A stretch of 64,000 nucleotides of DNA from Coriobacteriaceae bacterium (GCA_003563465.1 PWVH01000129.1:429-64428), one strand, 5' to 3'; positions 98 through 62,880 are shown, counted from the first letter of the stretch. The notes: generated by a model not told the origin, from the letters alone. Made by a program: numbers and translations.

Positions 98-1192
98 GTG
101 GATCTATCAACGGGCTTCCGCGACCCGGATTTAGCGGCCCGGCTCATCAAGGCTATCCACGATACTGCGACTCGGCCGATGACGCTGATGGAAGTATGCG
201 GAACCCATACCATGGCCATAGCCAAGTACGGTCTACGCGGTGTGCTTCCCGAAGACGTGCGGCTGCTTTCCGGACCGGGTTGCCCGGTCTGCGTCACCAG
301 CAACACCGACATCGACATCGCCATAGAGTTCGCTCGTCAGCCGAACGTCACCGTTGCGACATTCGGCGACATGATGAAAGTCCCCGGATCGCGTTCCTCG
401 CTCTCTCGCGAAAAGGCTGACGGTAGGGATGTGCGTATCGTCTATTCCCCTCTCGATGCCCTGGCACTAGCAGAGGGCCAACCCGACCGCCAAGTGGTCT
501 TCATCGGCGTCGGATTCGAGACCACGGTGCCTCTGATTGCAGCGGCCATCAAACGCGCGGCCGAGACAGGACTCGGCAACTTCTCAGTGTTTTCTGCTCA
601 CAAGACGGTTCCCATAGCTCTCGGAGCACTGGTCAACGATCCCGAGGTCGCTATCGAGGCCTTCATTCTTCCCGGTCACGTCTCCACGATCATCGGGCTT
701 GAGCCCTACCGCTTTCTTGCCGAGGAGTACTCCGTACCGAGCGTGATCACAGGTTTCGAGCCGGTCGACGTTCTGCAGGGTGTATGGATGCTGGCCAAGC
801 AGCTTGCCGAGGGCAGGGCCGACATCGAGATCGCATATACCCGGGGAGTTGACCCCCAAGGCAATACGACCGCCCTCAAGCTGATGAACGAAGTCTTCGA
901 GCCGGCCGATGCGGAGTGGCGGGGCATCGGCATCATCCCCGGCACGGGACTGGTGCTTCGCGAGCATTACGCTGAGTTCGATGCGCTCCAAAGAGTCCCT
1001 GTCTCTCCGGAGCCCCCTAAGGAAAACCCCGGCTGTCAGTGCGGGGAGGTGCTCAGGGGCGCAACCCTTCCCTACGAATGCCGCCTGTTCGCCAATGCCT
1101 GTACTCCAGAGCACCCCATTGGGCCTTGCATGGTGTCCTCGGAGGGCTCTTGCGCGGCCTATTACCGTTACACGGACTATGGCAAGTCCTAG
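98..1192 (+). CDS. hypD: [NiFe]-hydrogenase maturation protein HypD
   Basis: 364 aa with MEVCGTHT, GPGCPVCVT and a C-terminal Cys-rich region (GCQCGEV...PIGPCMVSSEGSCAAYY) typical of HypD. GTG start. Confidence 0.95.
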   Translation: MDLSTGFRDPDLAARLIKAIHDTATRPMTLMEVCGTHTMAIAKYGLRGVLPEDVRLLSGPGCPVCVTSNTDIDIAIEFARQPNVTVATFGDMMKVPGSRSSLSREKADGRDVRIVYSPLDALALAEGQPDRQVVFIGVGFETTVPLIAAAIKRAAETGLGNFSVFSAHKTVPIALGALVNDPEVAIEAFILPGHVSTIIGLEPYRFLAEEYSVPSVITGFEPVDVLQGVWMLAKQLAEGRADIEIAYTRGVDPQGNTTALKLMNEVFEPADAEWRGIGIIPGTGLVLREHYAEFDALQRVPVSPEPPKENPGCQCGEVLRGATLPYECRLFANACTPEHPIGPCMVSSEGSCAAYYRYTDYGKS

Positions 1193-1234: not shown

Positions 1235-2248
1235 ATGATGCAGCAAGACACCATCCTTCTTTCGCACGGCAGCGGCGGATCGCTCATGCATCGTCTGATC
1301 GACGAGGTTTTCGTCACGGGTTTCGGTGCCGCCGGCACGCCCGCGCTCGATGACGCTGCCTCGCTCGATGTCGCTGGCGGTCGTGTTGCGATGTCCACCG
1401 ACACTTATGTGGTCTCGCCCCTGTTCTTCCCGGGAGGCGACATCGGACGCCTGGCAGTGTGCGGCACCGTCAACGACGTCGCGACTTCAGGTGCACGGCC
1501 GCTCTACCTCTCTGTCGGCTTCGTGCTCGAAGAAGGCCTGCCAATAGAGGACCTCAAGCGTGTCTTGGTCTCCATGCGGGATGCAGCCGAAGAGGCAGGT
1601 GTGCGCATCGTGACCGGGGACACCAAGGTAGTCGAACGCGGGCACGGCGACGGCATGTATATCAACACCACCGGTCTGGGCGTCCTTGCCGAAGGAGTCG
1701 ACCTGTCCGGCTCCCACTGCCGACCAGGTGACGTCGTGCTGCTGTCCGGGACTTTGGGAGACCACGGAATCACGGTGGTCTCGACTCGCGAGGGTCTAGA
1801 GTTTTCGACCGACTTGCGCTCGGATGCGGCCCCTCTCAACCACATGGTGGCGGTGACGCTCGATGCCGCACCTGACGCCCGCTGCTTCCGTGATCCCACC
1901 CGCGGCGGACTCGCCTCCACCCTCAACGAGCTCGCCTCCGCATCTGGGGTCTCCATCACCGTAGACGAGCTGGCAGTTCCAGTGCACGACCAGGTTCGCG
2001 GTGCATGCGAGATGCTCGGATACGACGTCTTCCAGGTGGCCAACGAAGGCAAGATGGTGACAGTGGTGCCCGCCGACCAAGCAGAGGCTGCGCTTTCCGC
2101 GATGCGTTCGGCGCCATATGGTGAAGAAGCGGCCATCATAGGAGAGGTCGGCGAGTCACCCGCAGGCAAGGCCTACGTCCGCACGTCTTTCGGTGCCACG
2201 CGCATCATGGATATGTTGGTCGGAGAGCAGCTGCCGAGAATCTGCTAG
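1235..2248 (+). CDS. hypE: Hydrogenase maturation carbamoyl dehydratase HypE
   Basis: 337 aa, AIR-synthase-like fold, ending in the HypE signature PRIC. Directly follows hypD. Confidence 0.95.
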   Translation: MMQQDTILLSHGSGGSLMHRLIDEVFVTGFGAAGTPALDDAASLDVAGGRVAMSTDTYVVSPLFFPGGDIGRLAVCGTVNDVATSGARPLYLSVGFVLEEGLPIEDLKRVLVSMRDAAEEAGVRIVTGDTKVVERGHGDGMYINTTGLGVLAEGVDLSGSHCRPGDVVLLSGTLGDHGITVVSTREGLEFSTDLRSDAAPLNHMVAVTLDAAPDARCFRDPTRGGLASTLNELASASGVSITVDELAVPVHDQVRGACEMLGYDVFQVANEGKMVTVVPADQAEAALSAMRSAPYGEEAAIIGEVGESPAGKAYVRTSFGATRIMDMLVGEQLPRIC

Positions 2249-7366: not shown

Positions 7367-8077
7367 CTACAGTCCGATTGCTTTCTTGAGTGCGGGCACG
7401 CGCCGACGCGAGACTGGCACTTGCGTAGATTCGGCATCCGTAAGCGTGAGCAGCAGAGTGCCGCCATACATCGGAACCACCTCTCTGACCTGAGCCAGAT
7501 TGACCAGGTAGCGCCGGTGCACTCGGAAGAAACCGCTAGGCTCCAGACGTCGTTCGAGCTGTGCAAGCGAGATGGTGGAGAGATAGCGTTCGCCATCGGT
7601 GTGCAAGTATGAGTAGTCGTCTTTGGCCATGACGTAGAAGATGTCCTCGACTTGAAGCAGCAGTTTCCTGCCCGCCTTCTCCACGGGTATGCGCTCAACC
7701 CGCACACCTTCCTGCTGAGCTGGCACCAGGCGTTCGATCGCAGTGCGTAGTCTATCCAGTTCGACGGGCTTCACCAGATAGTCGGTCGCAGCGACTTCGA
7801 AAGCCTTGACCGCATGTTCGCTATGTGCGGTGACGAAAACGATCGAAGGCTGGCGGTCTAGGTTCGAAAGGGTCTCTGCAAGCTGCACCCCCGAGAGCCC
7901 CGGCATGTCGATGTCGAGAAAGACGACATCGTAGGGTATGGCTTTGATGAGCTGGAACGCCTCGGAGGCGTTCGATGCCTCGCCGACCACCTCCACCCCT
8001 CCCGCCTCATCGAGCAAGAACCGCAGCTCGGAGCGGGCCGGAGCCTCATCATCTACCACTAGTGCCTTCAGTACCAT
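7367..8077 (-). CDS. LytR/AlgR-family response regulator (REC + LytTR DNA-binding domain)
   Basis: KALVVDDE...DVVFLDIDMPG receiver, with a C-terminal LytTR region (FFRVHRRYLVNL). Start at ATG 8077 (GGGAG 6 nt upstream). Confidence 0.9.
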   Translation of the reverse strand: MVLKALVVDDEAPARSELRFLLDEAGGVEVVGEASNASEAFQLIKAIPYDVVFLDIDMPGLSGVQLAETLSNLDRQPSIVFVTAHSEHAVKAFEVAATDYLVKPVELDRLRTAIERLVPAQQEGVRVERIPVEKAGRKLLLQVEDIFYVMAKDDYSYLHTDGERYLSTISLAQLERRLEPSGFFRVHRRYLVNLAQVREVVPMYGGTLLLTLTDAESTQVPVSRRRVPALKKAIGL

Positions 8078-9380
8078 CAGCATCTCCCTCGGCAAGTCCT
8101 ACCGGCGCGATAGTAATCAGCACCCTCGTGCCGACTCCGAGTTCGCTGGCGACTGTGAGTCCTGATTCGGGACCGTAGTGCCCTTTGAGTCTATCGTCCA
8201 CGTTTTTCAAAGCTATTCCTAGTCCCTTGCCGAAACCCGGTTCCAGCACTCGCTTCACGTCCTCTTCGGACATGCCGGCCCCATCATCGACGACTTCTAC
8301 TTCCAATCTATCGTCAACATGGCATGCACAGATGCTGACGCGCAGTGTTTCCCCAGACTTCATCCCGTGCTGAACCGCATTCTCGACAATCGGCTGCACG
8401 GCGAACGCCGGTATCTGAACGTCTAGCAGCGAAGGATCCACGTCTTCGTCGACGATGAGACGCTCGCCGAAGCGGGCCGTCTCGAAGGCAAGATACGTTC
8501 GAGCGTACTGGATCTCTTGCTCGAGCGCCACAAGCTCTGCAGTCTCTTCCAGCGTCCGCCGGTAGAACCGGGCGAACTCGCGCAGAAGCGTGCGGGCTTG
8601 CTCCGGCTCGGTGCGTACCAGCATCGCGATGGTGTTTATTGTGTTGAACAGGAAGTGCGGGTGAATCTGCGCCTGAAGTGCCCTGAGCTCCATGCGACAG
8701 GCGAGTTCGGTCTGCCGGTCGAGTTCGGAGAGCTCGAGTTGCGTGGATAGCAATCTTGCCAGGCCCTCGGCCATCGCGATCTGCGTATCGTTCAGCAACC
8801 GTCTGTGCGTGTAGTAGAACTTCAGCGTTCCCACAGGCCGGTCGCGCATCTCGAGCGGTACTACGATGGCCGCCTTGAGCAGACATGTGCGTTCGGGACA
8901 GCCGATTGCTGCCTTGTTCTCCAGGATACGGTGCTCGTTGGATTCGACAGCCTCGCGCGTGGCACGAGTCAGAATCGGTCCTCCCGCGAAATGGTGATCC
9001 TCCCCAAGCCCGGCGAAACCCAGCACGCGCTCTGTATCGGTGATCGCCACGGCGGTTGCCTCGGTCTGTGCAAGCGCAAGCTGGCACACGGCTCCAGCCG
9101 TCTCTCGTGTCAATCCTTTGCGAAGGTGTGAGAGGCTCTCGTTGGCGATCTGCAGTATCTGATCGGAATGCATCGCTTTGAGATGGTCTGGGCGACTGAT
9201 CCAGCGAGCAATCACGCTTCCCATCGCGATGAGCGTAAGACCGCTGATCGATGCGTAGAGCACCCAGCGTGGCACATCCGCGCCTACGAGCACCCATCCC
9301 ACAACCGCCGCAAGCACCGTGACGGCAAAGAGAAGAAGCGAGTCGAAGAGGATAGTGCGCCTCTGAGTCATCGACACCAT
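8049..9380 (-). CDS. LytS/YehU-type sensor histidine kinase (2 TM + GAF + His_kinase + HATPase_c)
   Basis: QAQIHPHFLFNTINTI (PF06580-type H-box) and a C-terminal GxGxG ATPase region. Two N-terminal TM helices and a GAF-like middle domain. Confidence 0.9.
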   Translation of the reverse strand: MVSMTQRRTILFDSLLLFAVTVLAAVVGWVLVGADVPRWVLYASISGLTLIAMGSVIARWISRPDHLKAMHSDQILQIANESLSHLRKGLTRETAGAVCQLALAQTEATAVAITDTERVLGFAGLGEDHHFAGGPILTRATREAVESNEHRILENKAAIGCPERTCLLKAAIVVPLEMRDRPVGTLKFYYTHRRLLNDTQIAMAEGLARLLSTQLELSELDRQTELACRMELRALQAQIHPHFLFNTINTIAMLVRTEPEQARTLLREFARFYRRTLEETAELVALEQEIQYARTYLAFETARFGERLIVDEDVDPSLLDVQIPAFAVQPIVENAVQHGMKSGETLRVSICACHVDDRLEVEVVDDGAGMSEEDVKRVLEPGFGKGLGIALKNVDDRLKGHYGPESGLTVASELGVGTRVLITIAPVGLAEGDADGTEGTSGR

Positions 9381-9381
9381 C

Positions 9382-10224
9382 TCAACTCATATCCTCAGCT
9401 TCGGTCGATCCGACCAGGAATAGGAGACGACCGGGGGACTCCCTGAGGCCAGCTCTTCGGTAGAGAGCACGCGACGCCAGATTCTCTTCCTGGGTGCAGA
9501 TACTAACGTCGCCGACACCGGCTCGAAGCAGGTAGGCTACCGCCTCGACAAGAAGTGCCTCGCCTATACCGCGTCGCCGTTGCGAAGGCCGCACCGCCAA
9601 CCGCCCAAGAGTCCCGCTATCACCCATGACTGTCGCCAGAGTATAGCCGATGACCCCGTATTCGGACTCGGCAACGACGATGCGATCCTCCGCGAGGTGA
9701 CTATTCAGACGCTCATGATCGCAACGCCAGAAGGAATCGAAGCACTCGTTTTCTATACACATCAGCTCGTCTAAGTCTCCCTGGCTTCCCAGACGCAACC
9801 GCACGCCCGTCGGCAGCGCTCGGCCGCTTTGCTGTGCCGAGCGGTGATCGTATCGAAGCACGACGATCGTGCAGTAAGGAGTCATCCCCGCACGCTCGTA
9901 AGGCGAAGCAGCCCCCGTAGGCACCAGCGGACTGAGTAGACGGCCGAAACCTTGTTGGCGCGCAATCCGATTTAGCTGCCCGACCAGAGCAGGGATGCGC
10001 CGTGCCGAGCACCACAGCCCCTTCACGGCCAGCACATCCAGATGGCTCCGCCACCGTTCAAGGACCGCTAACTCGCCACTTTCGGTGACCTGCACTCGCC
10101 AAGGTGCATCTGCCCGAAAGCGCTCGAGGCCCTCGAGCGTGTCAAAGAGTCCGGCACCCTGGACCACGGGCCAAAGCCTGAGGACCTCTTCGTCTCTTGC
10201 GGGATGAAGACCGTGCTCGCTCAC
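9382..10224 (-). CDS. GNAT-family N-acetyltransferase with an uncharacterised N-terminal domain of about 150 aa
   Basis: C-terminal LAVRPSQRRRGIGEALL (acetyl-CoA motif A). Start set at GTG 10224, which overlaps the upstream TGA (GTGA) and follows GAGGTGGG. The ORF-track N-terminal extension overlaps the TauE gene. Confidence 0.75.
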   Translation of the reverse strand: MSEHGLHPARDEEVLRLWPVVQGAGLFDTLEGLERFRADAPWRVQVTESGELAVLERWRSHLDVLAVKGLWCSARRIPALVGQLNRIARQQGFGRLLSPLVPTGAASPYERAGMTPYCTIVVLRYDHRSAQQSGRALPTGVRLRLGSQGDLDELMCIENECFDSFWRCDHERLNSHLAEDRIVVAESEYGVIGYTLATVMGDSGTLGRLAVRPSQRRRGIGEALLVEAVAYLLRAGVGDVSICTQEENLASRALYRRAGLRESPGRLLFLVGSTEAEDMS

Positions 10225-10991
10225 CACACGCCCACCTCGCCCACCTCGTTGAAAGCGAGTATCGCTGCCAAGACGATCAGGAAGAGGGCGAAGGCCAGTC
10301 GCACATGGTGCTCTCGTGCAACGCCCGTCAATCGAGCGCCCAAAAAGGCTCCCGGCACAGCGCCGATCGTGAGGGCGAAGGCCAGGGGTACGTCTACGTT
10401 GCCTATCGCCCAATGCGTGATCGAGCCCGGGACCGAGATCACCGTTATGGCGACCAGGCTGGTTCCTATGGCCTCCTTAAGACGCAAGCCGAAGAAGCGG
10501 TGCAGTACCGGCACGAGAACGAATCCTCCTCCAAGACCCAGAAAACCCGAGTAGAGGCCTGCGAGAGACCCGAAGAGAGCCCAGCCGCGCCACGTCCGCC
10601 GCGCCTCGCCTCCGTACTCGCCGGGAGAACCCGTAAGACCGCGCAGCAGGTCGATAGCCACCAACACTATCAGGCCCGCCGTAATCAACAGCACCACGGT
10701 GCCGCCAGCCACTCGACTCGCCATGGCACCGAGAGCGGCAGTCGGGATTCCCCATGCTCCCAGGACAAGACCGCTCCGGACTCTGGCCGACCCGCTCCAT
10801 GCATGGGTCGCAGCACCAGCCAGAGCCGCTGGCAAGACAACAGGTAGCGGAGTGCCCACCGCGATCAGCCCCGGATAGCCGAGTACGAGACGTATCGCCG
10901 GGGTGGTCACCACACCACCGCCCACTCCGAACGCCCCCGAAAGCACGCCAGCCCCAAAGCCGACCGCTGCCGTGAGCAGAGTAGCTGTCAC
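10221..10991 (-). CDS. TauE/SafE (DUF81) family sulfite/anion exporter
   Basis: 256 aa, about 8 TM helices, Gly-rich repeats (GAFGVGGGVV, GFLGLGGGFVLVP) typical of the family. Confidence 0.85.
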   Translation of the reverse strand: MTATLLTAAVGFGAGVLSGAFGVGGGVVTTPAIRLVLGYPGLIAVGTPLPVVLPAALAGAATHAWSGSARVRSGLVLGAWGIPTAALGAMASRVAGGTVVLLITAGLIVLVAIDLLRGLTGSPGEYGGEARRTWRGWALFGSLAGLYSGFLGLGGGFVLVPVLHRFFGLRLKEAIGTSLVAITVISVPGSITHWAIGNVDVPLAFALTIGAVPGAFLGARLTGVAREHHVRLAFALFLIVLAAILAFNEVGEVGVW

Positions 10992-12238
10992 AACTCCGAA
11001 TCGCCTTGCGCTACGGGGAAACGGCCCGTGATAGCGCTTCGGTCCAGACTACGTTCGCCGGTGAAAAGGGGCTTCAACGCGACATCGTTCCAGATCCTGT
11101 CCATCAGCAGCGGCCATCGACGCTGAAAATCGAAGTAGTTCTGACAGTTCTCGCGAGCGTATTCCGATGCATCCTTCAGGGCCACGCGCGCGACTCGAAG
11201 ATAGCGCCCCCCCTCCTTGCGAGAAACGCCACGCATCAGCGAGGTCGCCACGGCCCGCCATGTCACGGCGGAGGAGATGAAGATTCCTGGGTAGGGCTGC
11301 ATAGACTCCGGAGTCACCTGGCGCAGATCCAGTTGTGACTTCGCGAACTCAAGCTTACGATGCTCGTATATGAACCTGTAAACATCTTGCCTGAACTGCA
11401 ACGCCTCGCTAGAAAGCCGCGGCGGGCGGTGTATCACGGACCACTCGCCGTCGAGGAACACGTCCCCACCGTGCATTCGTGCGTTGATGACGTAGTCGAC
11501 GTCCTCTCCGCGAACCACCCAGGGGTCGAACGAGACGTTGGAGAACATATCCCTATGCAGGGTCAGACAGCCGCCGAAGGCCACGGGTGTGGGAGTGATG
11601 CGCGGTGGCCTATCGACGATCGAAAGAGTCTCGTTGAACAGGTCGCTACGGCGCCAGAAGACATCGGCCCAGTGCGGATCGTCGTGTCGCTGGTAGTTGC
11701 CTTGCTCGTCGGTGTAAAAACCAGTCTTCGCCAGGACCTTCCTTTCGCCTTCGTAGGACTCTCCTACGCCTTCGATCGATCTCTTGAGGAATGTCGGATC
11801 GTCTATGACCTGGTCATCATCGATGAACAGCACGGTCTCGGAGCCGAGGATCGCGCCAGCGATGAGACCGACATTGCGCAGTGCCCCGTAGCCCACGAGA
11901 CTCACGCCTGGAATCATGTCTGCGAACTCGAGCTGCTCCAGACGACGGTGAAGCGAGCCTAGCTCTGCAGGACCGAAAACGAACGCGTCGATGCCAGGGT
12001 AGCTTGCAAGAATCCGGCGTACTCGGTCTTCGGCCGCATGCTCAGCGGACGGGTCGGCCGACGCAACGATCACGCACACGCGTCCAAGGCCTTCGAGCTG
12101 CTCGAGTGAGCGAAGGCAGTCCGGCAGGGTGCCATCGGAGTCGATGGGTGTCGGGTGGTCGTAGACCGATAGCAGATTGTCTGAGACACGTCCACGGCGG
12201 CCCGTCCAGAATGTGGGTATTATCACACAGGGTGTCAC
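10988..12238 (-). CDS. Glycosyltransferase-like protein (GT-A fold with DxD), specific function unknown
   Basis: 416 aa with N-terminal VIIPTF and LFIDDDQVIDD (DxD-like). No TM helices. The stop overlaps the TauE start (GTGA). Family not recognised with confidence. Confidence 0.4.
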   Translation of the reverse strand: MTPCVIIPTFWTGRRGRVSDNLLSVYDHPTPIDSDGTLPDCLRSLEQLEGLGRVCVIVASADPSAEHAAEDRVRRILASYPGIDAFVFGPAELGSLHRRLEQLEFADMIPGVSLVGYGALRNVGLIAGAILGSETVLFIDDDQVIDDPTFLKRSIEGVGESYEGERKVLAKTGFYTDEQGNYQRHDDPHWADVFWRRSDLFNETLSIVDRPPRITPTPVAFGGCLTLHRDMFSNVSFDPWVVRGEDVDYVINARMHGGDVFLDGEWSVIHRPPRLSSEALQFRQDVYRFIYEHRKLEFAKSQLDLRQVTPESMQPYPGIFISSAVTWRAVATSLMRGVSRKEGGRYLRVARVALKDASEYARENCQNYFDFQRRWPLLMDRIWNDVALKPLFTGERSLDRSAITGRFPVAQGDSEL

Positions 12239-13058: not shown

Positions 13059-14072
13059 CTATTCGACGATTCCGAGTTCTCGCCCGCACTGGGAGCAGGC
13101 GCCGTTGCGCAGCGAGCTCTCGACAATGGTGTACCCTTCCCGTACCACCGCGCGTGAGCCACACGATGGACATACACTGTCCTCGCCACCCTTCTCGGCC
13201 ACGTTGCCCAGAAACACGAAGTTCAACCCCTCTTCCTTCCCGATACGTGCCGCCTCACGCAAAGTCGCAACCGGTGTCGGCTCGAGATGAGAGAAGTCCA
13301 GATACGGGAAGAAACGCGTGACGTGCCATGGCGTGTCCGGCCCTAGTCCTGACGCTATCCAGGACGCGACGGCTCTGAGTTCCTCCGCGGAGTCGTTTAT
13401 CGTGGGCACGACGTTCGTGACCACTTCGAGATGCATGCCCCAGCGATGCTTCGCAGCTTCGGCAGCCTCGAACACAGGGGCTGGTGAGGGTATCTTGCAT
13501 AGTTCGCGGTAAGCGCGGTCGGTAGCGCCCTTGACATCGACGCGCCACACGTCGACATGTTCGCCGAGGAAGTCCATGCCTTCCCTTGTGATGTAACCGT
13601 TGGTGACCATGATCGTGAACAGCCCGGCGCTGTGACACTTCTCAGCGCAGTCGCGGACGAACTCGGCCCAGATGATCGGTTCGTTGTAGGTGAAGGCGAC
13701 GCCTGGACAGCCGTTCTCGCGAGCAAGCTCGACCACTGACGTGGGCGAAAGACGCCTCGTGTGTACGGTCGAATCCTCGAGATCGGCTCGGCTGATCTGC
13801 CAGTTCTGGCAGTGCCCGCATCGCATGGAGCAGCCCAGGCTGCCGAGGGATAGAACTAGAGACCCTGGGTGATAGTGGAAGACGGGCTTCTTTTCCACGG
13901 GATCGGCGGCCACCGAGGAGACGACACCATACGTGGCCGCCTCGAGTGTCCCGCCCGAGTTCCGCCTGACTCCGCACACGCCGGTCTTGCCCTCAGCGAT
14001 CAAGCATCTCCACGGACACAGATCGCATCGGACGCGCTCGCCCTCGGCGTGCCAGACTCGCGCGACATGCAT
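13059..14072 (-). CDS. AmmeMemoRadiSam-system-type radical SAM enzyme (PFL-activase-like)
   Basis: N-terminal CDLCPWRC...GVCGVR, DPVEKKP, GCSMRCGHCQNWQIS (CxxxCxxC with the QNW-IS signature), and a C-terminal zinc ribbon CPSCG...CSQCG. Confidence 0.8.
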   Translation of the reverse strand: MHVARVWHAEGERVRCDLCPWRCLIAEGKTGVCGVRRNSGGTLEAATYGVVSSVAADPVEKKPVFHYHPGSLVLSLGSLGCSMRCGHCQNWQISRADLEDSTVHTRRLSPTSVVELARENGCPGVAFTYNEPIIWAEFVRDCAEKCHSAGLFTIMVTNGYITREGMDFLGEHVDVWRVDVKGATDRAYRELCKIPSPAPVFEAAEAAKHRWGMHLEVVTNVVPTINDSAEELRAVASWIASGLGPDTPWHVTRFFPYLDFSHLEPTPVATLREAARIGKEEGLNFVFLGNVAEKGGEDSVCPSCGSRAVVREGYTIVESSLRNGACSQCGRELGIVE

Positions 14073-14085
14073 TTGCGGCCTCCCG

Positions 14086-15879
14086 TCAGCCTGGGGCGAT
14101 CCTCACCTGGTCGCGTCCACGTCCCTTGGCTCCGTACAGTGCCCTGTCAGCCGCTTCGAGCAGTGCGTCGGCATCCGCGATTCCGGGGCCTGCCGATGCC
14201 AAGCCGATCGAGATGGTCACCGCGACGTCTCCGGTGCGATCGGGTCCTGGCAAAGGCACTTCGCGTTCAGCGACTGCCGCTCTCAGCTTCTCAGCTACAG
14301 CATAGCCCGCTGTCTTGCTGACGCCGGGCAGGATCAGAGCGAACTCGTCGCCTCCGAAGCGGGAGGGGATATCGGTCTCGCGCAGCACCTCTTTCATGAT
14401 TTCAGCGGTGGCCGAGAGGACCGCGTCTCCGGTGACGTGCCCGTATCGATCGTTTACCGCCTTGAAGCCGTCGATATCTATCATGAGCAGCGTCAGCGGT
14501 GTGCCATAGCGCTGGAAACGTGCGAACTCGCTCGCCAACCTCTCAGAAAACGCACGCCGGTTCCAAAGCCCTGTCAGCGAATCGAGCGTCGCCGACTCCT
14601 TCAGAATGCTGTTGGCCTCCTCGAGACGCTTTCGTTGCAGCGGGAAACACATATCCCAAGTCGAATCGGCGGCCAGTATGGCCTCCGCGTGCTCAACGCA
14701 CGTATCATGCCCGCACGCGCCGCAGTCCAGCACGGTTTGACGATCGAATTCTCCTTCGACTAGGCAAGCGTCGATCTCCTGGGTGGTGAACACCCGCCTG
14801 AGCACGGGAGCGGCCGTGAAGGAGCGAGCAAGTTCGATCCGCGGCAAGTGTGCAAGCAGTGAGGTCGTATCGAAAGGGATCGATGGCCCTTGCGAGCCTG
14901 AGGAGGCGATCGCCCTTTTCGCGAACACCGATAGTTCGGAACCCGTTGCCGGACCGTCGATGCATCCGTCACAACAGAGCATGTCGACCACGAAGGGCTC
15001 AGTCTCTCCTCTCTGGATGCCGCCCAAAAGATCGTCTATCTCCTTCAGGCCGCGCACGGTCACCACGTCTCGAGACGTCATGTCGTACGACGCGAGTGTG
15101 CGCCGCGGAAACCCGTCGATCAGCGACAGCTCTTTCACCGGCGCAGGGCGGCGAGAACCAAGCTCAACACCCACTGGAGACGAGCGTTGGCTCGAAGACG
15201 CCGAGAGCATGTCCCTCAACTCTCCGAAATCGATTGTGACATCCACCGAGCCATCGAAAGCTGGATCGTCGACCTCGTCCTTGCGAGCGAAGCACGGCGA
15301 GACGTACACGACGGCCACGTCCTCGGGATACAGCGCCTTGATAAGTCTTGCTTGTGCCACATATGGCGGAACTATTGGTGCCAGCGCCGGGACGAGTGCG
15401 GGATGGAATCGGCGCACCCATGCGACAGCCACCGGACAAGTCGAGCGCAAGACGATAGACTTCGTCCGCTGATCATGGCAGCGCTCGTACTCCAACGCCA
15501 CCATCTCTTCGCCAAGCAGGGTGGTCTCCACGGAGAAGAAGCCTGCATCCTCGAGAGACGCCTCCACCTCAGCAGGACCCATCGGGTGCAGGGCAGCGAT
15601 GAACTCCGTGGCAAGCAACGCCACGACTGGCCGCTCTCCTGCCAGCAGTTCGTGTACCAGGGGCAGGTCGTCACGGACCGTGTGCGCTCCTCGCGAGCAC
15701 GCTGTCACGCAGGCACCACACTTGACGCAACGCTCCTGGATGACCTTCGATCGCCTGTCCACGACACGGATGGCTCCCGCAGGACAGACCCGAACGCAGC
15801 CCCAGCATTCCCGACAGGATTCGCCCGGTCCTTCGATGAGTAGGCCGCTCTCGGACGGCGGATGTACTGGACGGCCCAT
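14086..15879 (-). CDS. Sensory-type [FeFe]-hydrogenase-like protein fused to a GGDEF diguanylate cyclase
   Basis: Contains 2x CxxCxxCxxxC(P). H-domain motifs are RSTCP, SPCFARKDE and VDMLCCDGCIDGP. These are followed by CGACGHDTC-x16-C, then RETD-x5-GGDEF. Start at ATG 15879 (AGGAGG 5 nt upstream). Confidence 0.85.
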   Translation of the reverse strand: MGRPVHPPSESGLLIEGPGESCRECWGCVRVCPAGAIRVVDRRSKVIQERCVKCGACVTACSRGAHTVRDDLPLVHELLAGERPVVALLATEFIAALHPMGPAEVEASLEDAGFFSVETTLLGEEMVALEYERCHDQRTKSIVLRSTCPVAVAWVRRFHPALVPALAPIVPPYVAQARLIKALYPEDVAVVYVSPCFARKDEVDDPAFDGSVDVTIDFGELRDMLSASSSQRSSPVGVELGSRRPAPVKELSLIDGFPRRTLASYDMTSRDVVTVRGLKEIDDLLGGIQRGETEPFVVDMLCCDGCIDGPATGSELSVFAKRAIASSGSQGPSIPFDTTSLLAHLPRIELARSFTAAPVLRRVFTTQEIDACLVEGEFDRQTVLDCGACGHDTCVEHAEAILAADSTWDMCFPLQRKRLEEANSILKESATLDSLTGLWNRRAFSERLASEFARFQRYGTPLTLLMIDIDGFKAVNDRYGHVTGDAVLSATAEIMKEVLRETDIPSRFGGDEFALILPGVSKTAGYAVAEKLRAAVAEREVPLPGPDRTGDVAVTISIGLASAGPGIADADALLEAADRALYGAKGRGRDQVRIAPG

Positions 15880-15952
15880 CAACACCTCCTGCAAGACATC
15901 CGTCTTGCCGTCTGCCGTGAATCAAAGCTCTATTCGCTGTTCACTCTCTAGA

Positions 15953-16522
15953 CTAGCCGTGGTTTCTTCCGCCGAGAAGCCCCGCTGCATCCAAGCGCCT
16001 CATAAGCGTGGCCAACGGCAACCCCAAACCGTAGACGACGACCGCTTGACCGAAGCCCACGGTAGCCACTCCGAGCAGGTATATGACAACCCGTCCACTA
16101 CCGACATCCAGACCCAAGAACTGTTGCTGGTCGAGGCCTAGAGCCGCCAGAAGCACTGGGAGATACACTGGGACAATCAGCGCGTTGCTGAAAACGGGGC
16201 CTGCAAGCGCAAATCCGACTCGCTCACGAAAGCGCCACGTCCATGCCGCGCCGAGCAGGGTCGCGATGGATCCGAAGACCACATCAAGAAGTCCCACCGG
16301 GCCGACCGCCCCGACGAGGGTCGCGTTTGCGGCAGCCGTGCCTATCGCAAGACCCGGAACCGCTGCTGGAGTGAACAGAGCGAGCACGGTGAGCGCTTCA
16401 CTCAGGCGGAACTGCACCGGACCCCATCCCAATTGAGCGGGCATCTGAAGAACGGCAAGCGTCGCTGCAGCATGGACTGCGGCGATGACTCCCGCCTGGG
16501 CGATGTAGCGCGTCCTGTTCAC
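15953..16522 (-). CDS. queT: QueT-family queuosine-precursor transporter
   Basis: 189 aa, 5-6 TM helices, with the PVQFRLSEALTVL motif typical of QueT (PF06177). GTG start with GGGAG upstream. Confidence 0.75.
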   Translation of the reverse strand: MNRTRYIAQAGVIAAVHAAATLAVLQMPAQLGWGPVQFRLSEALTVLALFTPAAVPGLAIGTAAANATLVGAVGPVGLLDVVFGSIATLLGAAWTWRFRERVGFALAGPVFSNALIVPVYLPVLLAALGLDQQQFLGLDVGSGRVVIYLLGVATVGFGQAVVVYGLGLPLATLMRRLDAAGLLGGRNHG

Positions 16523-16628
16523 CGGCGGACTCCCATGTGCGGATGCTCGCGGATTCTAGCATACGGCCGGAACGGGCGTGCGCTCGAGCGAGAGGTCGAG
16601 TGCTTCGCTCCCCATCCGAGATGGCTGC

Positions 16629-18113
16629 TCAGGACAGCTTGTTTCTGGGAAGGCTCACGGTGAACGTCGTCCCCTCGCCCAGCGAACTGTGCACCTCGAT
16701 GCTCCCGCCCATCACATCCACGTTCGCCTTCGCGATAGCCAAACCCAGCCCGAAACCACCGTGAGAGTCGGAGCGTGAACTCTCCGAGCGATAGAAGCGC
16801 TCAAAGATGCTGTCCATCTCCTCGGCAGGAATGCCGATTCCCGTATCTTCTACCTCGAAGACGAGCACGTCACCCTTGACGCGTGTAGATAGCGAGACCC
16901 GACCGCCGGGAGGCGTGTACTTACAGGCATTGTCGAGCAGGACGGAAAGCACGGTCTCGATGCGGCTCGGGTTGCCGATCATGTCGATAGTGCCCTCATC
17001 CGGTCCCTCGAACGCCAGCCCCTTGGATTGATAACGAGTTGCACTCATCGCCAAGACCTCACGGCAGAGCGCATTCGCGTCGAGAGACTCCCGGCCCAAG
17101 TCGGCGACCTGTTCGCTCCTCAAAAGAATCAGCAGATCGCCACAGAGCCTGGCCATTCGGCGTGACTCGCGATCGATTGCAGACACTGCCTCATCTCGAA
17201 CCTCAGCGTCGTCCCCTCCCCAGGCCTTCAAGATGTTCGTATACCCTCTGATTCCAGCAACTGGCGTCGACAACTCGTGAGAGACGTCCGCCATGAATCT
17301 GGTCTGCATCTCCGCCCGTCGGCTGAGTCTATCGATGAGCCTGTTGACCGATCGAGCGAGCTCGACGATCTCGCGCCATCCTTCCTCGGGAAGCCTCACG
17401 TCGAGCCGTCCTGCATCAATCGAGTCCGCCGCCCTGCGCAGGTTTCCCACCGGCCCCAGAGCCCATCCCACAGCGACTCGCACCACGACCAAAACGATCA
17501 ATACGGCAAGGACTGCCAGTGCAGCCATCAGGGCACGAGCAGAGTCGATGACCGCTTCCTCGCGATCGGGCAGGTAGACGACATCTAGCACACCGCGAAC
17601 TCCGCCGGGAACATCGACAGGAACGTGAACGGCGTAGATTCCCAGCCGAGCCGGGCCGATCATGTTCGAAAACACGCTGCGACGCTCGACCGTGTGCTCC
17701 AACGGCTGACCTAACGACAGGGCACGCTCCCGCTCGTGGACGCCGTCGACTACGGCTCGTCCGCTGCTGGACCACTCCGGTTCAATCCTGTCGCCGTAGT
17801 AGAAGGCGAACTCGCCCGTCGATGGGTAAGCGATGCGCAGGGCCAGCGGGAATTCTTCAAAGAAGCGAGCCTCCGTCTCCCGGTCCCAGTCGTCGCCTGT
17901 CAGTCCGATTGCGCTCGATTCGACTGAGACTTCTGATGACAGTGCTCGAGCGACCTTATCGGCGTTGGCGGCCAACGCCGTGACCTGCTCGTTCGCGGCG
18001 TCAGCCATCCCGTCCAAGACCACATAGAGAGCAAGCGCAAACCCACCTGAGATAAGCAAGGCGAGCGGGAGCGAAACGAGAAGCATCCACGTACTGAATG
18101 ACGAACGGCGCAT
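16629..18113 (-). CDS. Sensor histidine kinase (2 TM, periplasmic domain, HAMP, HisKA, HATPase_c)
   Basis: FMADVSHELSTPV H-box, LLDNACKYT N-box, DTGIGIP and GGFGLGLAI G-boxes. Confidence 0.9.
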   Translation of the reverse strand: MRRSSFSTWMLLVSLPLALLISGGFALALYVVLDGMADAANEQVTALAANADKVARALSSEVSVESSAIGLTGDDWDRETEARFFEEFPLALRIAYPSTGEFAFYYGDRIEPEWSSSGRAVVDGVHERERALSLGQPLEHTVERRSVFSNMIGPARLGIYAVHVPVDVPGGVRGVLDVVYLPDREEAVIDSARALMAALAVLAVLIVLVVVRVAVGWALGPVGNLRRAADSIDAGRLDVRLPEEGWREIVELARSVNRLIDRLSRRAEMQTRFMADVSHELSTPVAGIRGYTNILKAWGGDDAEVRDEAVSAIDRESRRMARLCGDLLILLRSEQVADLGRESLDANALCREVLAMSATRYQSKGLAFEGPDEGTIDMIGNPSRIETVLSVLLDNACKYTPPGGRVSLSTRVKGDVLVFEVEDTGIGIPAEEMDSIFERFYRSESSRSDSHGGFGLGLAIAKANVDVMGGSIEVHSSLGEGTTFTVSLPRNKLS

Positions 18114-60268: not shown

Positions 60269-61855
60269 TCATGACGAGCATGGGAATCGCAGACGGTCCA
60301 GGAAACTCAGGTACGCGGGATCGCGCATGAAAGCACGGATGCGTTTGCGGCCGATCGCAAGAAAACTCGTCGGCGCGTACTTGTACTCCGCGTGAATCCT
60401 TACCCACTCGAACAGCCGCTTCGGGAATGCAAGTTCGGCCAGATAGGCACGTTGGCCCTTCCCCAGCAACCTGTGCCGGAAGAACGTGCCTCTCAGCGCG
60501 GAGAGAGCAACCCGCCAGATGGAGTAGAAGCGTCGGTACTCCTTGGTCACGAAGCGCTGCATCTCCTGCGGTGTCATCCGATCCGGTTTCAAGACCACAT
60601 GCATTCCATCAAATAGCGCCAGGTCTTCAATTCTCGAGAACAGCATTCTGTTCGTCTTGAGATGCTCGCGCGTCCGTTTGGTCCCCGGCAAGGGCGTCTC
60701 GAACAGGTATTGCAGCGACGTGACGCACTTCTTCGCGTAGTCGCAGTTGCGACGGATGATCTCGCGCGTATCACTCGGCAAGGCTATGAACATACCGTGC
60801 ACTACTAGCCCGTAGCGTCGCATGGCGCGTAACGCGCGGGACATGCGAGAGCTATCTATGAGCTTGTGGAGCTGATCTAGGTTCGCATCATCCGCAGACT
60901 CTACGCCCACGCACACGACAGTGACCCCCGCCACCTTCTTCAGCAGACGCAAGAGCTCGCGATCGAGCCGGCCTTCGGACGTAAGTGCGGCGCTCGCGTG
61001 CATCTGGACGACCAGCATGCGGCTGAAGCCCTTTTCGGACACCGAGCGCAGGAACTGCTTGAACGAGGGTTTGTTAGCCGCGGCGTTGTCGTCGATCAGG
61101 AATGTGGTGCGAAAACCTTCGTCCCAGGCTCGCACCATCTCGCCGACGCTAGACCCATCTTGACGCACTACGTAGCGTGGCCAGATCTCGCACACCTCAC
61201 AGAAGTCGCATCTGCGTGTACATCCCCGAGAACGCCAGACAGCGGCCACGGAGATACGATGCGCTTGGTGCACGAGCGACCTGTCCACAAATGGCAACGC
61301 GTCGAGCTCTTCCCGGCTCAGCTGCTGTGGTGGAGGCCCTTTGCGGAGTCGGTCTTCCTCCCTCCAGACGAGCCCGGGAATGGCTTCAAGTGATTCGCCG
61401 TCTTGCCCCAGAAGTGCCACCACCAAACGAGGCAGCGTTATCTCGGCCTCTCCACGCAGAACGTAGTCTGCGCCGACAAGGATGCTCCGCTCAGGTTCAC
61501 ACGTAGGCTCGGGACCGCCGAAGACGATCTTCGCCTGCGGGTTGATCGCCCGTGCCTGCTCGAGCAAGCGTTGCGTCCTGGGCACCGTGCAAGTGATCGC
61601 CGAGAAACCGACCACATCGGCGCCGGCTACGAAATCCCAGTCGACGGAACCCTCGCCGCTGATGTCCTCGATGAATGCCTTGGCGTCGTGTCCTGCATCT
61701 CGCAGCACCGTGGCAAGCAGCGGAATCCCTCGGCCCATAGCCACGTGAGAGTAGATATTGAGACCGGGTGACCCGGCTTCGATGAGGGCCACGCGTCCAC
61801 TGCGCGGCGCCTCGGTGGTCGCCACAGCAGCCTCCTTAGGATCGTCTTGCTCCAT
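60269..61855 (-). CDS. B12-binding-domain radical SAM protein (COG1032 type)
   Basis: N-terminal Rossmann-like cobalamin-binding region, SRGCTRRCDFCEV (CxxxCxxC), and a long C-terminal domain. Start uncertain (ATG 61855, 61900 or 61936). Confidence 0.85.
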   Translation of the reverse strand: MEQDDPKEAAVATTEAPRSGRVALIEAGSPGLNIYSHVAMGRGIPLLATVLRDAGHDAKAFIEDISGEGSVDWDFVAGADVVGFSAITCTVPRTQRLLEQARAINPQAKIVFGGPEPTCEPERSILVGADYVLRGEAEITLPRLVVALLGQDGESLEAIPGLVWREEDRLRKGPPPQQLSREELDALPFVDRSLVHQAHRISVAAVWRSRGCTRRCDFCEVCEIWPRYVVRQDGSSVGEMVRAWDEGFRTTFLIDDNAAANKPSFKQFLRSVSEKGFSRMLVVQMHASAALTSEGRLDRELLRLLKKVAGVTVVCVGVESADDANLDQLHKLIDSSRMSRALRAMRRYGLVVHGMFIALPSDTREIIRRNCDYAKKCVTSLQYLFETPLPGTKRTREHLKTNRMLFSRIEDLALFDGMHVVLKPDRMTPQEMQRFVTKEYRRFYSIWRVALSALRGTFFRHRLLGKGQRAYLAELAFPKRLFEWVRIHAEYKYAPTSFLAIGRKRIRAFMRDPAYLSFLDRLRFPCSS

Positions 61856-61980
61856 CCTCCTCGGCACATGCGCACCACGCGCCCCGCTCACATGCCGCAT
61901 GATTGTTATCTTCCCACACCATGACTCAAGGCGCATGAAGGTTGGTTATGCTCTCACCGTACGATGAATCGGGAGCGATG

Positions 61981-62880
61981 ATGACTCGATATACCGATCT
62001 AAGTACGACCGGAGAACTAGCCCGCCGAGCAGAGCGGGCACGGGCCGAACTCGTGAACTGCAAGGTATGCCCACACGAGTGCCTGGTAGACCGCCTAGCA
62101 AGGCAGCGAGGCCTTTGTCGTGCTGGAGCCCTTGCGCGCATCTCGAGCGCGGGACCACACTTCGGCGAGGAGGCCCCCCTCGTCGGGAGACGTGGATCTG
62201 GCACGGTGTTCTTCGCTTGGTGCAACCTTCACTGCGAGTTCTGCCAGAACGCCGACATATCCCAGTTCGGACACGGAGAGGATATGGCCGCCGAGGAGCT
62301 TGCCGAAGTCTTCGTCGGCATTCAGACCGCTGAATGCGAGAACCTCAACCTCGTAAGCCCCACGCATTTCACTCCGCAGATCCTCGCCGCACTCGATATC
62401 GCAGCCGAACAGGGTCTTACCCTCCCCATCGTGTGGAACACCGGCGGCTACGAATCCCTCGACACACTGGAGCTTCTCGATGGAGTGGTCGACATCTACA
62501 TGCCCGACTTGAAATACGCCGACGCCGAGACCGCATTGCGTCTCGCGGGAGCGAGCGACTATCCCGACCGGGCGTTCGCTGCCGTGCGTGAGATGCATCG
62601 ACAGGTCGGCGACCTCGCGATCGGGAAGCACGGTTCCGCTACCAGGGGTTTGCTCGTGCGTCACCTCGTCCTACCAGCTGAGCTTTCGGGGACCGCCGAG
62701 GTCATGCGTTTTCTTGCCGAGGAGGTTTCCAGCGACACGTACGTAAACGTCATGGACCAATACCGCCCCTGTCACAGAGCTCACGAAACGCCCGAGCTAT
62801 CCAGACCTGTCACAGCAAGCGAGTACGAAGCTGCCCTCGACAGCGCGCGTGTCGCCGGGCTGCACCGATTCGCACGGTAA
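61981..62880 (+). CDS. PflX-type radical SAM protein (COG1313, PFL-activase homolog)
   Basis: CKVCPHEC...GLC N-terminal Cys motif, GEEAPL, FFAWCNLHCEFCQNADIS. Start is probably ATG 61978/61981 (GGGAG upstream) rather than 61942. Confidence 0.85.
   Translation: MTRYTDLSTTGELARRAERARAELVNCKVCPHECLVDRLARQRGLCRAGALARISSAGPHFGEEAPLVGRRGSGTVFFAWCNLHCEFCQNADISQFGHGEDMAAEELAEVFVGIQTAECENLNLVSPTHFTPQILAALDIAAEQGLTLPIVWNTGGYESLDTLELLDGVVDIYMPDLKYADAETALRLAGASDYPDRAFAAVREMHRQVGDLAIGKHGSATRGLLVRHLVLPAELSGTAEVMRFLAEEVSSDTYVNVMDQYRPCHRAHETPELSRPVTASEYEAALDSARVAGLHRFAR

Follow-up and report, generated by a model that had tools for sequence, protein, structure and literature searches.

A predicted diguanylate cyclase fused to a sensory [FeFe]-hydrogenase-like module in a clade of anaerobic Actinomycetota

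Architecture and relatives of the sensor-cyclase

Putative sensory [FeFe] hydrogenases are built from a two-cluster N-terminal domain, an H-domain without Cys299 and a Cx2Cx4Cx16C motif placed before the signalling domain (PMC8163306; PMC10407848), and this last motif has been described in both TmHydS from Thermotoga maritima (group C/M2f) and TamHydS from Thermoanaerobacter mathranii (group D/M2e) (PMC8163306). The sensory [FeFe] subtypes listed in HydDB are histidine-kinase-linked (C1), chemotactic (C2) and phosphatase-linked (C3), the same three outputs that had been named in a first-pass annotation of the DNA studied here, and no diguanylate-cyclase-linked subtype is among them. That DNA, a stretch of 64,000 nucleotides (nt) from a Coriobacteriaceae bacterium (GCA_003563465.1, PWVH01000129.1:429-64428; hereafter the window), encodes a protein of 597 amino acids (aa), here called the sensor-cyclase, in which a hydrogenase-derived sensor module with four predicted clusters is coupled to a canonical GGDEF domain in one polypeptide (Table 1). 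No description of an [FeFe] H-domain-GGDEF fusion was found in a full-text literature search, from which subscription-journal surveys were largely beyond reach, in keeping with the first-pass view that the fusion was new.

Compared by published description, the sensor-cyclase shares with TmHydS the two-[4Fe-4S] N-terminal domain, a short H-domain, the four cluster cysteines and the replacement of Cys299, whereas the output domain is a PAS domain in TmHydS and a GGDEF domain here. TamHydS likewise has no PAS domain, but it carries no fused output domain, in contrast to the fused GGDEF of the sensor-cyclase. With the HydDB types C1, C2 and C3 the protein has in common the joining of a HydS-type module to a signalling output. 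Hydrogenase-type sensing directed to cyclic di-GMP (c-di-GMP) is also attributed to the [NiFe] group 2c, entered in HydDB as 'diguanylate cyclase-linked (putative)', although its metal centre and fold are unrelated to those of the sensor-cyclase. On the output side, WspR, PleD, DosC and the bacteriophytochrome-diguanylate cyclase 5llw show the same canonical GGDEF domain, I-site and helix coupling to the sensor, with receiver, globin or phytochrome inputs in place of the four-cluster hydrogenase-like domain. In the [NiFe] group 2c, furthermore, sensor and cyclase are separate proteins, whereas in the sensor-cyclase they form a single polypeptide.

The start codon that had been favoured in the first-pass annotation, ATG 15879, is sound because the homologues span 96-100% of the length of the protein, and it is preceded by the AGGAGG given in Table 1. 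The domains recognised by Pfam begin with the two ferredoxin motifs, whose letters are CRECWGCVRVCP and CVKCGACVTAC; no match to a PAS domain was obtained by Pfam in the 597-aa protein, and the GGDEF domain comes directly after a helix of 21 residues. The NCBIfam models for [FeFe]-hydrogenase groups A and B matched the sensor-cyclase below threshold only. A phmmer search of the PDB sequences aligned the N-terminal part with solved [FeFe] hydrogenases (7p5h, 7qv7_D, 8a6t and CpI; E-values from 1e-11 to 1e-8), and the signature motifs P1, P2 and P3 coincided. The structure predicted by AlphaFold from 60 homologues (predicted local distance difference test 87, predicted template modelling score 0.75) was submitted to Foldseek, where its first ~420 residues matched the HydA subunits 8a6t_A and 9gnk, as well as CbA5H, with a probability of 1.0, and its C-terminal part matched GGDEF structures, including 3ign with a template modelling score of 0.96.

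When residues 1-425 were compared exhaustively by HMMER with 1.84 billion cluster representatives, 3365 matches were obtained at E <=1e-3, of which 431 were at <=1e-30 and the best went down to 1e-80; most of them extend over residues ~20-420 and so comprise the whole sensor module. Among 124 full-length HydS-like representatives scanned with Pfam, Fe_hyd_lg_C was detected in every one (124/124) and PF04060 in 123, while their outputs comprised HisKA/HATPase_c (n = 35), PAS-family domains (n = ~35) and sigma-54 AAA+ with or without HTH_8 (n = 12); a GGDEF output was found in 14 by Pfam and in 15 by our own hidden Markov model (HMM). The first ~420 residues are recognisable by sequence as a full-length homologue of the HydS-type (group C/D-like) sensory [FeFe]-hydrogenase modules.

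The sensor modules of the 124 representatives were placed in a neighbour-joining tree (360 columns, midpoint-rooted, without support values), in which the 11 representatives that combine a GGDEF domain with RSTC in P1 formed one clade, placed by that unsupported rooting as sister to all the kinase, sigma-54 and PAS forms. The tree contained no TmHydS, TamHydS or HydDB reference sequences; TmHydS and TamHydS were sought among the retrieved proteins by their published residue numbers, and neither was found. Four other GGDEF-linked proteins (P0139, P0142, P0198 and P0235), with ordinary HydS motifs, nested among the kinase and PAS forms, suggesting that GGDEF domains were recruited to the HydS module several times. 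The hallmarks that would set the RSTC-GGDEF clade apart are RSTCP in P1, Glu at the S232 position of CpI, the loss of Lys358 and the invariant 21-residue helix. On these comparisons, the sensor-cyclase can be assigned to a clade of its own, a branch of the sensory [FeFe]-hydrogenase-like proteins that is specific to Actinomycetota and has a diguanylate cyclase as its output.

Cluster ligands, H-site pocket and cyclase output

Conservation was followed in 60 aligned full-length members of the family, which are 54-79% identical, and in a wider alignment of the 124 HydS-like representatives (11 from the clade and 113 others), in which positions were mapped to CpI. All the 16 cluster cysteines of the sensor-cyclase are invariant in the 60 homologues, the eight ferredoxin cysteines included; the four H-site cysteines and the four of the C-terminal cluster are also invariant in the 124 representatives, and cluster cysteines are kept down to ~25% identity. 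The first-pass annotation had proposed the two ferredoxin motifs, altered but recognisable forms of P1, P2 and P3 with candidates for the four H-cluster ligands, the Cx2Cx4Cx16C motif, and a complete GGDEF domain with an RETD I-site five residues upstream; all of these were borne out, with a single correction in P3.

In P1, where RSTCP stands for the canonical TSCCP, the candidate [4Fe-4S]H ligand C148 aligns to C300 of CpI, and T147 falls at the position of the proton-relay Cys299. In P2, SPCFARKDE replaces the canonical MPCxxKxxE, C196 aligns to C355 and R199 occupies the position of K358; P195-C196-x-A-R-K-D-E202 is invariant in the 60 homologues and residue 194 is Ser in 58 of them. The P3 letters VDMLCCDGCIDGP align to the P3 of solved [FeFe] hydrogenases in the PDB phmmer comparison, and D299, L301, C303, C306, G309 and P310 are invariant. 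Since C302, first taken as a ligand, is unconserved (Asn in 42/60 homologues), the P3 ligand pair is C303 and C306 (Cx2C), the conserved cysteines aligned to C499 and C503 of CpI; P3 itself stood as it had been quoted, and the ligand had been placed one residue off. The spacing C-x-G-C (Cx2C) was present in all the 124 HydS-like representatives, whereas group A enzymes have C-P-G-G-C (Cx3C), a family-wide difference of which no discussion was met in the literature read.

Residues around the H-site were compared between the clade and the other HydS-like proteins. The CpI T297 position is Arg in all the clade representatives (11/11) and in none of the others (0/113); at the C299 position the clade has Thr (11/11) and the others mostly Ala, Pro or Ser; the S232 position is Glu in 10 of the 11, whereas the others have Ser in 99/113 and Glu in none; and the G418 position is Ser in the whole clade (11/11) and mostly Pro elsewhere. 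Lys at the K358 position was retained in 2/11 clade representatives, in contrast to 103/113 of the others, and the 60 Coriobacteriia sequences have an invariant Arg (R199) there. The M353 position, with Ser or Thr in five of the 11 clade representatives and Gly in the rest, is not a clade-wide trait, and the P231 position is Thr in the sensor-cyclase. Lys358 of CpI hydrogen-bonds a cyanide ligand of the [2Fe] subsite and is needed for H-cluster assembly in group A. Because this lysine is lost and two new charged residues lie near the site, canonical [2Fe] binding would be unassured, and from these sequences it cannot be assumed for the H-site of the sensor-cyclase.

The characterised sensory enzymes differ from the sensor-cyclase, and resemble it, at distinct positions of this site. 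TmHydS has Ala at the Cys299 position (PMC10407848), whereas here the P1 motif is RSTCP, Glu takes the place of S232, and Lys358 has its counterpart in an Arg or, across the clade, in a variable residue. TamHydS and the sensor-cyclase share Ser in place of M353 and Leu in place of M497 (S194 and L301 here), Ser or Thr at M353 being a hallmark of M2e (PMC8163306), and in both P3 begins with an acidic residue (E289 in TamHydS, D299 here). The residue E252 proposed for the proton path of TamHydS has no counterpart, and the equivalent position is occupied, judging from the alignment, by Phe257.

The accessory motif reads C386-x2-C389-x4-C394-x16-C411 and is invariant in the 60 homologues and in the 124 HydS-like representatives. 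The linker that runs from C411 to D433, the first conserved GGDEF residue, measured exactly 21 residues in 60/60 family members and likewise in 11/11 clade representatives, down to ~34% identity; in the independent GGDEF fusions it measured 21 (P0139), 14 (P0142) or 31 residues (P0198 and P0235). Counted from the cluster ligand, 21 residues correspond to three heptads, as would be expected, by analogy with other sensor cyclases, of a register-sensitive helix that positions the GGDEF dimer.

In the GGDEF domain, the partner residues D468, N476, D485, R507, K585 and R589 were at least 90% conserved, and N476 and D485 are presumably the equivalents of N335 and D344, the base-recognising pair of PleD. 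A search with this domain against the PDB matched WspR at an E-value of 1e-33 and solved diguanylate cyclases at 1e-25 to 1e-33. The domain is a canonical, GTP-specific GGDEF and apparently an active diguanylate cyclase subject to product inhibition. Hypr-type specificity for cyclic GMP-AMP was considered and rejected, given the conservation of N476 and D485 (compare N339/S348 in GacA).

Distribution and gene neighbourhood

A word-indexed search recovered more than 120 clusters, at 90% identity, of homologues that share this architecture over the full length; the named homologues are labelled just 'diguanylate cyclase' and come from Coriobacteriia or Actinomycetota metagenome-assembled genomes. 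The survey of its spread that had been suggested at the outset revealed that the fusion is not rare: with each GTDB species represented by one genome, at least 101 species had it. All the 80 carriers listed of the 101 were of Coriobacteriia type, mainly metagenome-assembled genomes (Anaerosomatales/OPB41, UBA2279, and some mislabelled 'Eubacteriales'); two closed chromosomes are among them, as is 'Coriobacteriaceae bacterium EMTCatB1', which is near-complete. OY968780.1, OY969691.1 and BDLO01000001.1 (EMTCatB1) are examples of carrier genomes. The classification of OKU8 reads OPB41; UBA2279.

Table 1. Coordinates of the sensor-cyclase gene, its features and other genes in the window
Feature	Coordinates	Strand	Evidence or remark
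Sensor-cyclase open reading frame (ORF), 597 aa + stop	14086-15879	-	Translation, Pfam, exact match to P0001, homologue clusters
Shine-Dalgarno AGGAGG, 5 nt 5' of ATG 15879	15885-15890	-	Sequence read
Two ferredoxin-type [4Fe-4S] motifs, residues 20-66 (C22/25/28/32; C51/54/57/61)	15682-15822	-	Pfam Fer4_9, Fer4_7, Fer4_10
[FeFe]-hydrogenase H-domain PF02906 (Fe_hyd_lg_C), residues 85-310	14950-15627	-	Pfam E 2.4e-29, phmmer, Foldseek
A90-T-E92-F loop, equivalent to CpI A230-P231-S232	15601-15612	-	E92 invariant, 60/60
P1, R145-S-T-C148-P	15433-15447	-	R145-S-T-C148 invariant in 60
P2, S194-P-C196-F-A-R199-K-D-E202	15274-15300	-	Alignments, conservation
P3, D299-M-L301-C-C303-D-G-C306-I-D-G-P	14950-14985	-	Alignments, conservation
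Accessory Fe-S domain PF04060 'FeS', residues 384-413	14641-14730	-	Pfam E 3.8e-5, 23.7 bits, cut-off 23
Predicted signalling helix, residues 412-432, C411 to GGDEF	14584-14646	-	AlphaFold helix 412-431
GGDEF domain, residues 430-591	14107-14592	-	Pfam E 5e-43; TIGR00254 E 6.5e-48
I-site, R500-E-T-D503	14371-14382	-	R500 and D503 invariant; coordinates checked by translation
Active-site motif, G509-G-D-E-F513	14341-14355	-	Conservation; five residues after I-site
queT	15953-16629	-	Directly upstream of sensor gene in 80/85 loci
AmmeMemoRadiSam-type radical SAM gene	13059-14072	-	TIGR04337, 308 bits, cut-off 220
Conserved 416-aa protein	10988-12238	-	Downstream in 73/85 loci
TauE	10221-10991	-	Downstream in 60/85 loci
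GNAT ORF, TTG start 10413	9382-10413	-	Downstream in 65/85 loci
GAF + His_kinase (PF06580) + HATPase sensor kinase	8049-9380	-	Pfam
LytTR response regulator	7367-8095	-	Pfam
HypD	98-1192	+	Window
HypE	1235-2248	+	Window
PAS-GGDEF-EAL protein, 828 aa	30041-32527	+	Best matches c-di-GMP phosphodiesterase models
B12-binding radical SAM, BchE/HpnJ-like, far below equivalog cut-offs	60269-61936	-	CxxxCxxC motif
Small, weakly matching radical SAM ORF, divergent from the B12-binding one	61942-62880	+	CxxxCxxC motif

Synteny was counted in 85 related loci (Table 1). The AmmeMemoRadiSam-type gene was found directly downstream of the sensor gene and on the same strand in 82 of them; the median distance between the two is 18 nt (13 nt for the pair studied here), and they are probably co-transcribed. 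AMMECR1 and Memo, the usual partners of AmmeMemoRadiSam, were absent from the annotated +-10 kb neighbourhoods of eight loci. This downstream enzyme was also tried as a HydE or HydG and rejected: TIGR04337 was its best model, the remaining matches were glycyl-radical activases, and no HydE or HydG model matched. Three ORFs of the window contain the CxxxCxxC motif of radical SAM enzymes, and none of them is HydE or HydG, as had been noted in the first pass for the maturases of this 64-kb window; no search was aimed at HydF.

A search with an H-domain HMM of the window and 88 related loci (1.64 Mb) detected no second H-domain gene. In this the clade departs from the M2e and M2f genes, which are often co-located with group A hydrogenases (PMC8163306); the TamHydS gene itself adjoins a bifurcating group A hydrogenase, whereas the sensor-cyclase gene has no such neighbour. 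For the first cultured Anaerosomatales, group 1i and 3b [NiFe] hydrogenases and HypABCDEF were reported and no [FeFe] system was listed (PMC9686372); a [NiFe] hydrogenase is the sole one mentioned for EMTCatB1 (PMC7943316); and among related Wood-Ljungdahl Actinobacteria an [FeFe] hydrogenase with HydEFG was reported in one assembly only (PMC7325909).

The pair formed by the GAF-His_kinase sensor kinase and the LytTR regulator was present in 67-68 of the 85 loci, plus five of five deep-clade loci, which makes these genes the most persistent neighbours. The kinase looks cytoplasmic, and together with the regulator it might represent a partner or a target pathway of the sensor-cyclase. Genes for a DsbA-like thioredoxin-fold protein and for a Usp protein also lie within the conserved neighbourhood block. 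The 416-aa neighbour gave no match in Pfam, NCBIfam or the PDB sequences; DDD and GEDVD motifs seen by eye recall GT-A glycosyltransferases and might mean a polysaccharide function relevant to c-di-GMP. The GNAT ORF overlaps the 3' end of TauE by ~190 nt and is 343 aa long here, compared with 267-277 aa in its homologues, and its real start probably lies further downstream than TTG 10413. Neither a preQ1 nor another riboswitch was found before queT (Rfam, E <=0.1), and the Rfam and promoter/terminator scan of the 9-19 kb region returned nothing informative.

The deep-clade members (L083, L084 and L086-L088; 34-40% identity) are Actinomycetota, as we infer from their gene content. All five loci have a LytS-like kinase with a LytTR regulator and most have TauE, while the radical SAM neighbour was kept in L083 only and is absent beside the other four. 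Genes for hypCDE(F) were located near L083 (19167-21507) and L087 (9687-14507), and Wood-Ljungdahl genes near L086 and L088. The hyp genes that had been noticed at the start of the window are accounted for by HypD and HypE, and the PAS-GGDEF-EAL protein noticed nearby was also recovered; the latter is evidence of a wider c-di-GMP network in the organism.

Candidate inputs and significance of the sensor-cyclase

The Fe-S sensor module very probably gates an active diguanylate cyclase by way of the C-terminal cluster and the 21-residue helix. Cluster occupancy, the absence of a [2Fe] subsite, signalling through a dimer helix and the physiological input are what we infer in the mechanism proposed here, in which the two ferredoxin-type sites, the [4Fe-4S]H site and the C-terminal Cx2Cx4Cx16C cluster of a cytoplasmic sensor would form an Fe-S chain. 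The chain would relay its redox or ligation state to the C-terminal cluster, whose last ligand, C411, would cap a rigid 21-residue helix running into the GGDEF domain; the helix would set the geometry of the GGDEF dimer and turn c-di-GMP synthesis on or off, and the RxxD I-site would add product feedback. The input would be how far the low-potential electron pool is reduced, or damage by oxidants, perceived through a [4Fe-4S]-only or re-purposed H-site, and in a [NiFe]-based hydrogenotroph such a redox readout would be an indirect report of the supply of H2 or of electron donor.

The chances are evenly balanced that a canonical [2Fe] subcluster is missing from the H-site and that the protein responds to the redox state of the low-potential electron pool or to oxidants; an input of the redox or oxidant kind is in our view more likely than H2 chemistry at a canonical H-cluster. 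In favour of this reading are the derived pocket of the clade, the lack of a second H-domain gene in the 1.64 Mb searched, the window without a HydE or HydG, and the published genomes of relatives, in which [NiFe] hydrogenases are described. A precedent for a site with [4Fe-4S] only is offered by Nar1/NARFL (IOP1), eukaryotic H-domain homologues that keep the [4Fe-4S] cysteines and function without the [2Fe] subcluster and without HydEFG, although these serve in Fe-S assembly, lack both a signalling output and the Cx2Cx4Cx16C motif, and have a different N-terminal cluster.

Several observations weigh against such a re-purposed H-site. The pocket residues of RSTCP and SPCxARKDE are invariant in the 60 sequences, and this strict purifying selection speaks for a site that still works in some way; the conservation is equally compatible with a functional cofactor site and with a structural role. 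Arg199 or Arg145 might stand in for Lys358, S194 and L301 reproduce the M353Ser/M497Leu pair of TamHydS, and the hyp genes found within ~10 kb of the sensor gene in the window, L083 and L087, in hydrogenotrophic hosts, suit an H2-linked role. The absence of HydEFG from the carriers is suggested by the silence of the papers on the matter, and TmHydS and TamHydS bind the H-cluster despite their altered pockets (PMC8163306).

The function put forward in the first-pass annotation is that of a genuine H2 sensor, in which HydEFG from another locus would mature a complete H-cluster, and the H2 signal would pass along the cluster chain and the helix to c-di-GMP synthesis. Such a protein would constitute a direct one-polypeptide pathway from H2 to c-di-GMP, the [FeFe] counterpart of the [NiFe] group 2c, and we regard this as possible but doubtful. 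The conserved four H-cluster cysteine positions, the full-length homology to the HydS-like sensors that end in PAS, kinase or sigma-54 domains, the loss of Cys299 together with the Cx2Cx4Cx16C motif as in TmHydS and TamHydS, the Ser and Leu residues shared with the latter, a pocket that is invariant within the clade and hydrogenotrophic hosts with hyp genes nearby are all consistent with it; yet the Lys358 position is unconserved in the clade, the T297 and S232 positions have become fixed for the charged residues Arg and Glu, none of the loci has a group A hydrogenase in its vicinity, unlike the situation of the M2e and M2f genes, and the papers on cultured relatives mention neither an [FeFe] hydrogenase nor HydEFG. 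The architecture proposed in the first pass stood, whereas its H2-sensing part was weakened by the shift of the P3 ligand by one residue, the loss of Lys358, the charged pocket residues, the lack of a nearby catalytic [FeFe] hydrogenase and the published genomes of relatives, in which only [NiFe] hydrogenases are described. That a true [FeFe]-type H2 sensor operates in bacteria with [NiFe] enzymes as their only catalytic hydrogenases, Lys358 being functionally replaced by Arg145 or Arg199, is unlikely, and the extreme version, in which the probably co-transcribed AmmeMemoRadiSam-type enzyme would help to mature or modify the site in place of HydEFG, is very improbable.

A sensor of oxidants (O2, reactive oxygen species or NO) would work by degradation or nitrosylation of an exposed [4Fe-4S] cluster, upon which the C-terminal domain would relax and the cyclase would be switched, and strict anaerobes would alter c-di-GMP-dependent behaviour, presumably attachment or biofilm formation. 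We consider this improbable as the dedicated function: there are four Cys-ligated cluster sites, the last cluster ligand is attached straight to the output helix, the hosts are strict anaerobes as well as hydrogenotrophs, and DsbA-like and Usp genes belong to the conserved block, but specific evidence is lacking, a simple Fnr-like sensor would need neither four clusters nor a conserved H-domain pocket, and the proposal overlaps the favoured one of Fe-S redox sensing, of which it is a sub-case. It is scarcely credible that the sensor module is vestigial and the protein a constitutive or otherwise regulated cyclase with the hydrogenase-like part as a dimerisation scaffold, which would agree with the database annotation as 'diguanylate cyclase' only, since the 16 cysteines and many pocket residues are invariant across 54-79% identity, the cluster cysteines persist to ~25% identity, the linker length is invariant and the same module was recruited to four output types.

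With the sensor-cyclase, a first example is given of a clade that is widespread among anaerobic Actinomycetota but undescribed. For TmHydS and TamHydS there is no output that can be measured (PMC8163306; PMC10407848); an enzymatic output, the conversion of GTP into c-di-GMP, would make the hypothesis of signalling by sensory [FeFe] proteins directly testable in vitro. If the clade works without HydEFG, it would be a case of a bacterial hydrogenase scaffold re-used as an Fe-S redox sensor, in parallel to the eukaryotic Nar1. Either way, a diguanylate-cyclase-linked class is added to the [FeFe] sensory enzymes, beside the putative [NiFe] group 2c, and the finding points to a control of lifestyle by c-di-GMP in the widespread subsurface hydrogenotrophs and metal reducers of OPB41/Anaerosomatales.

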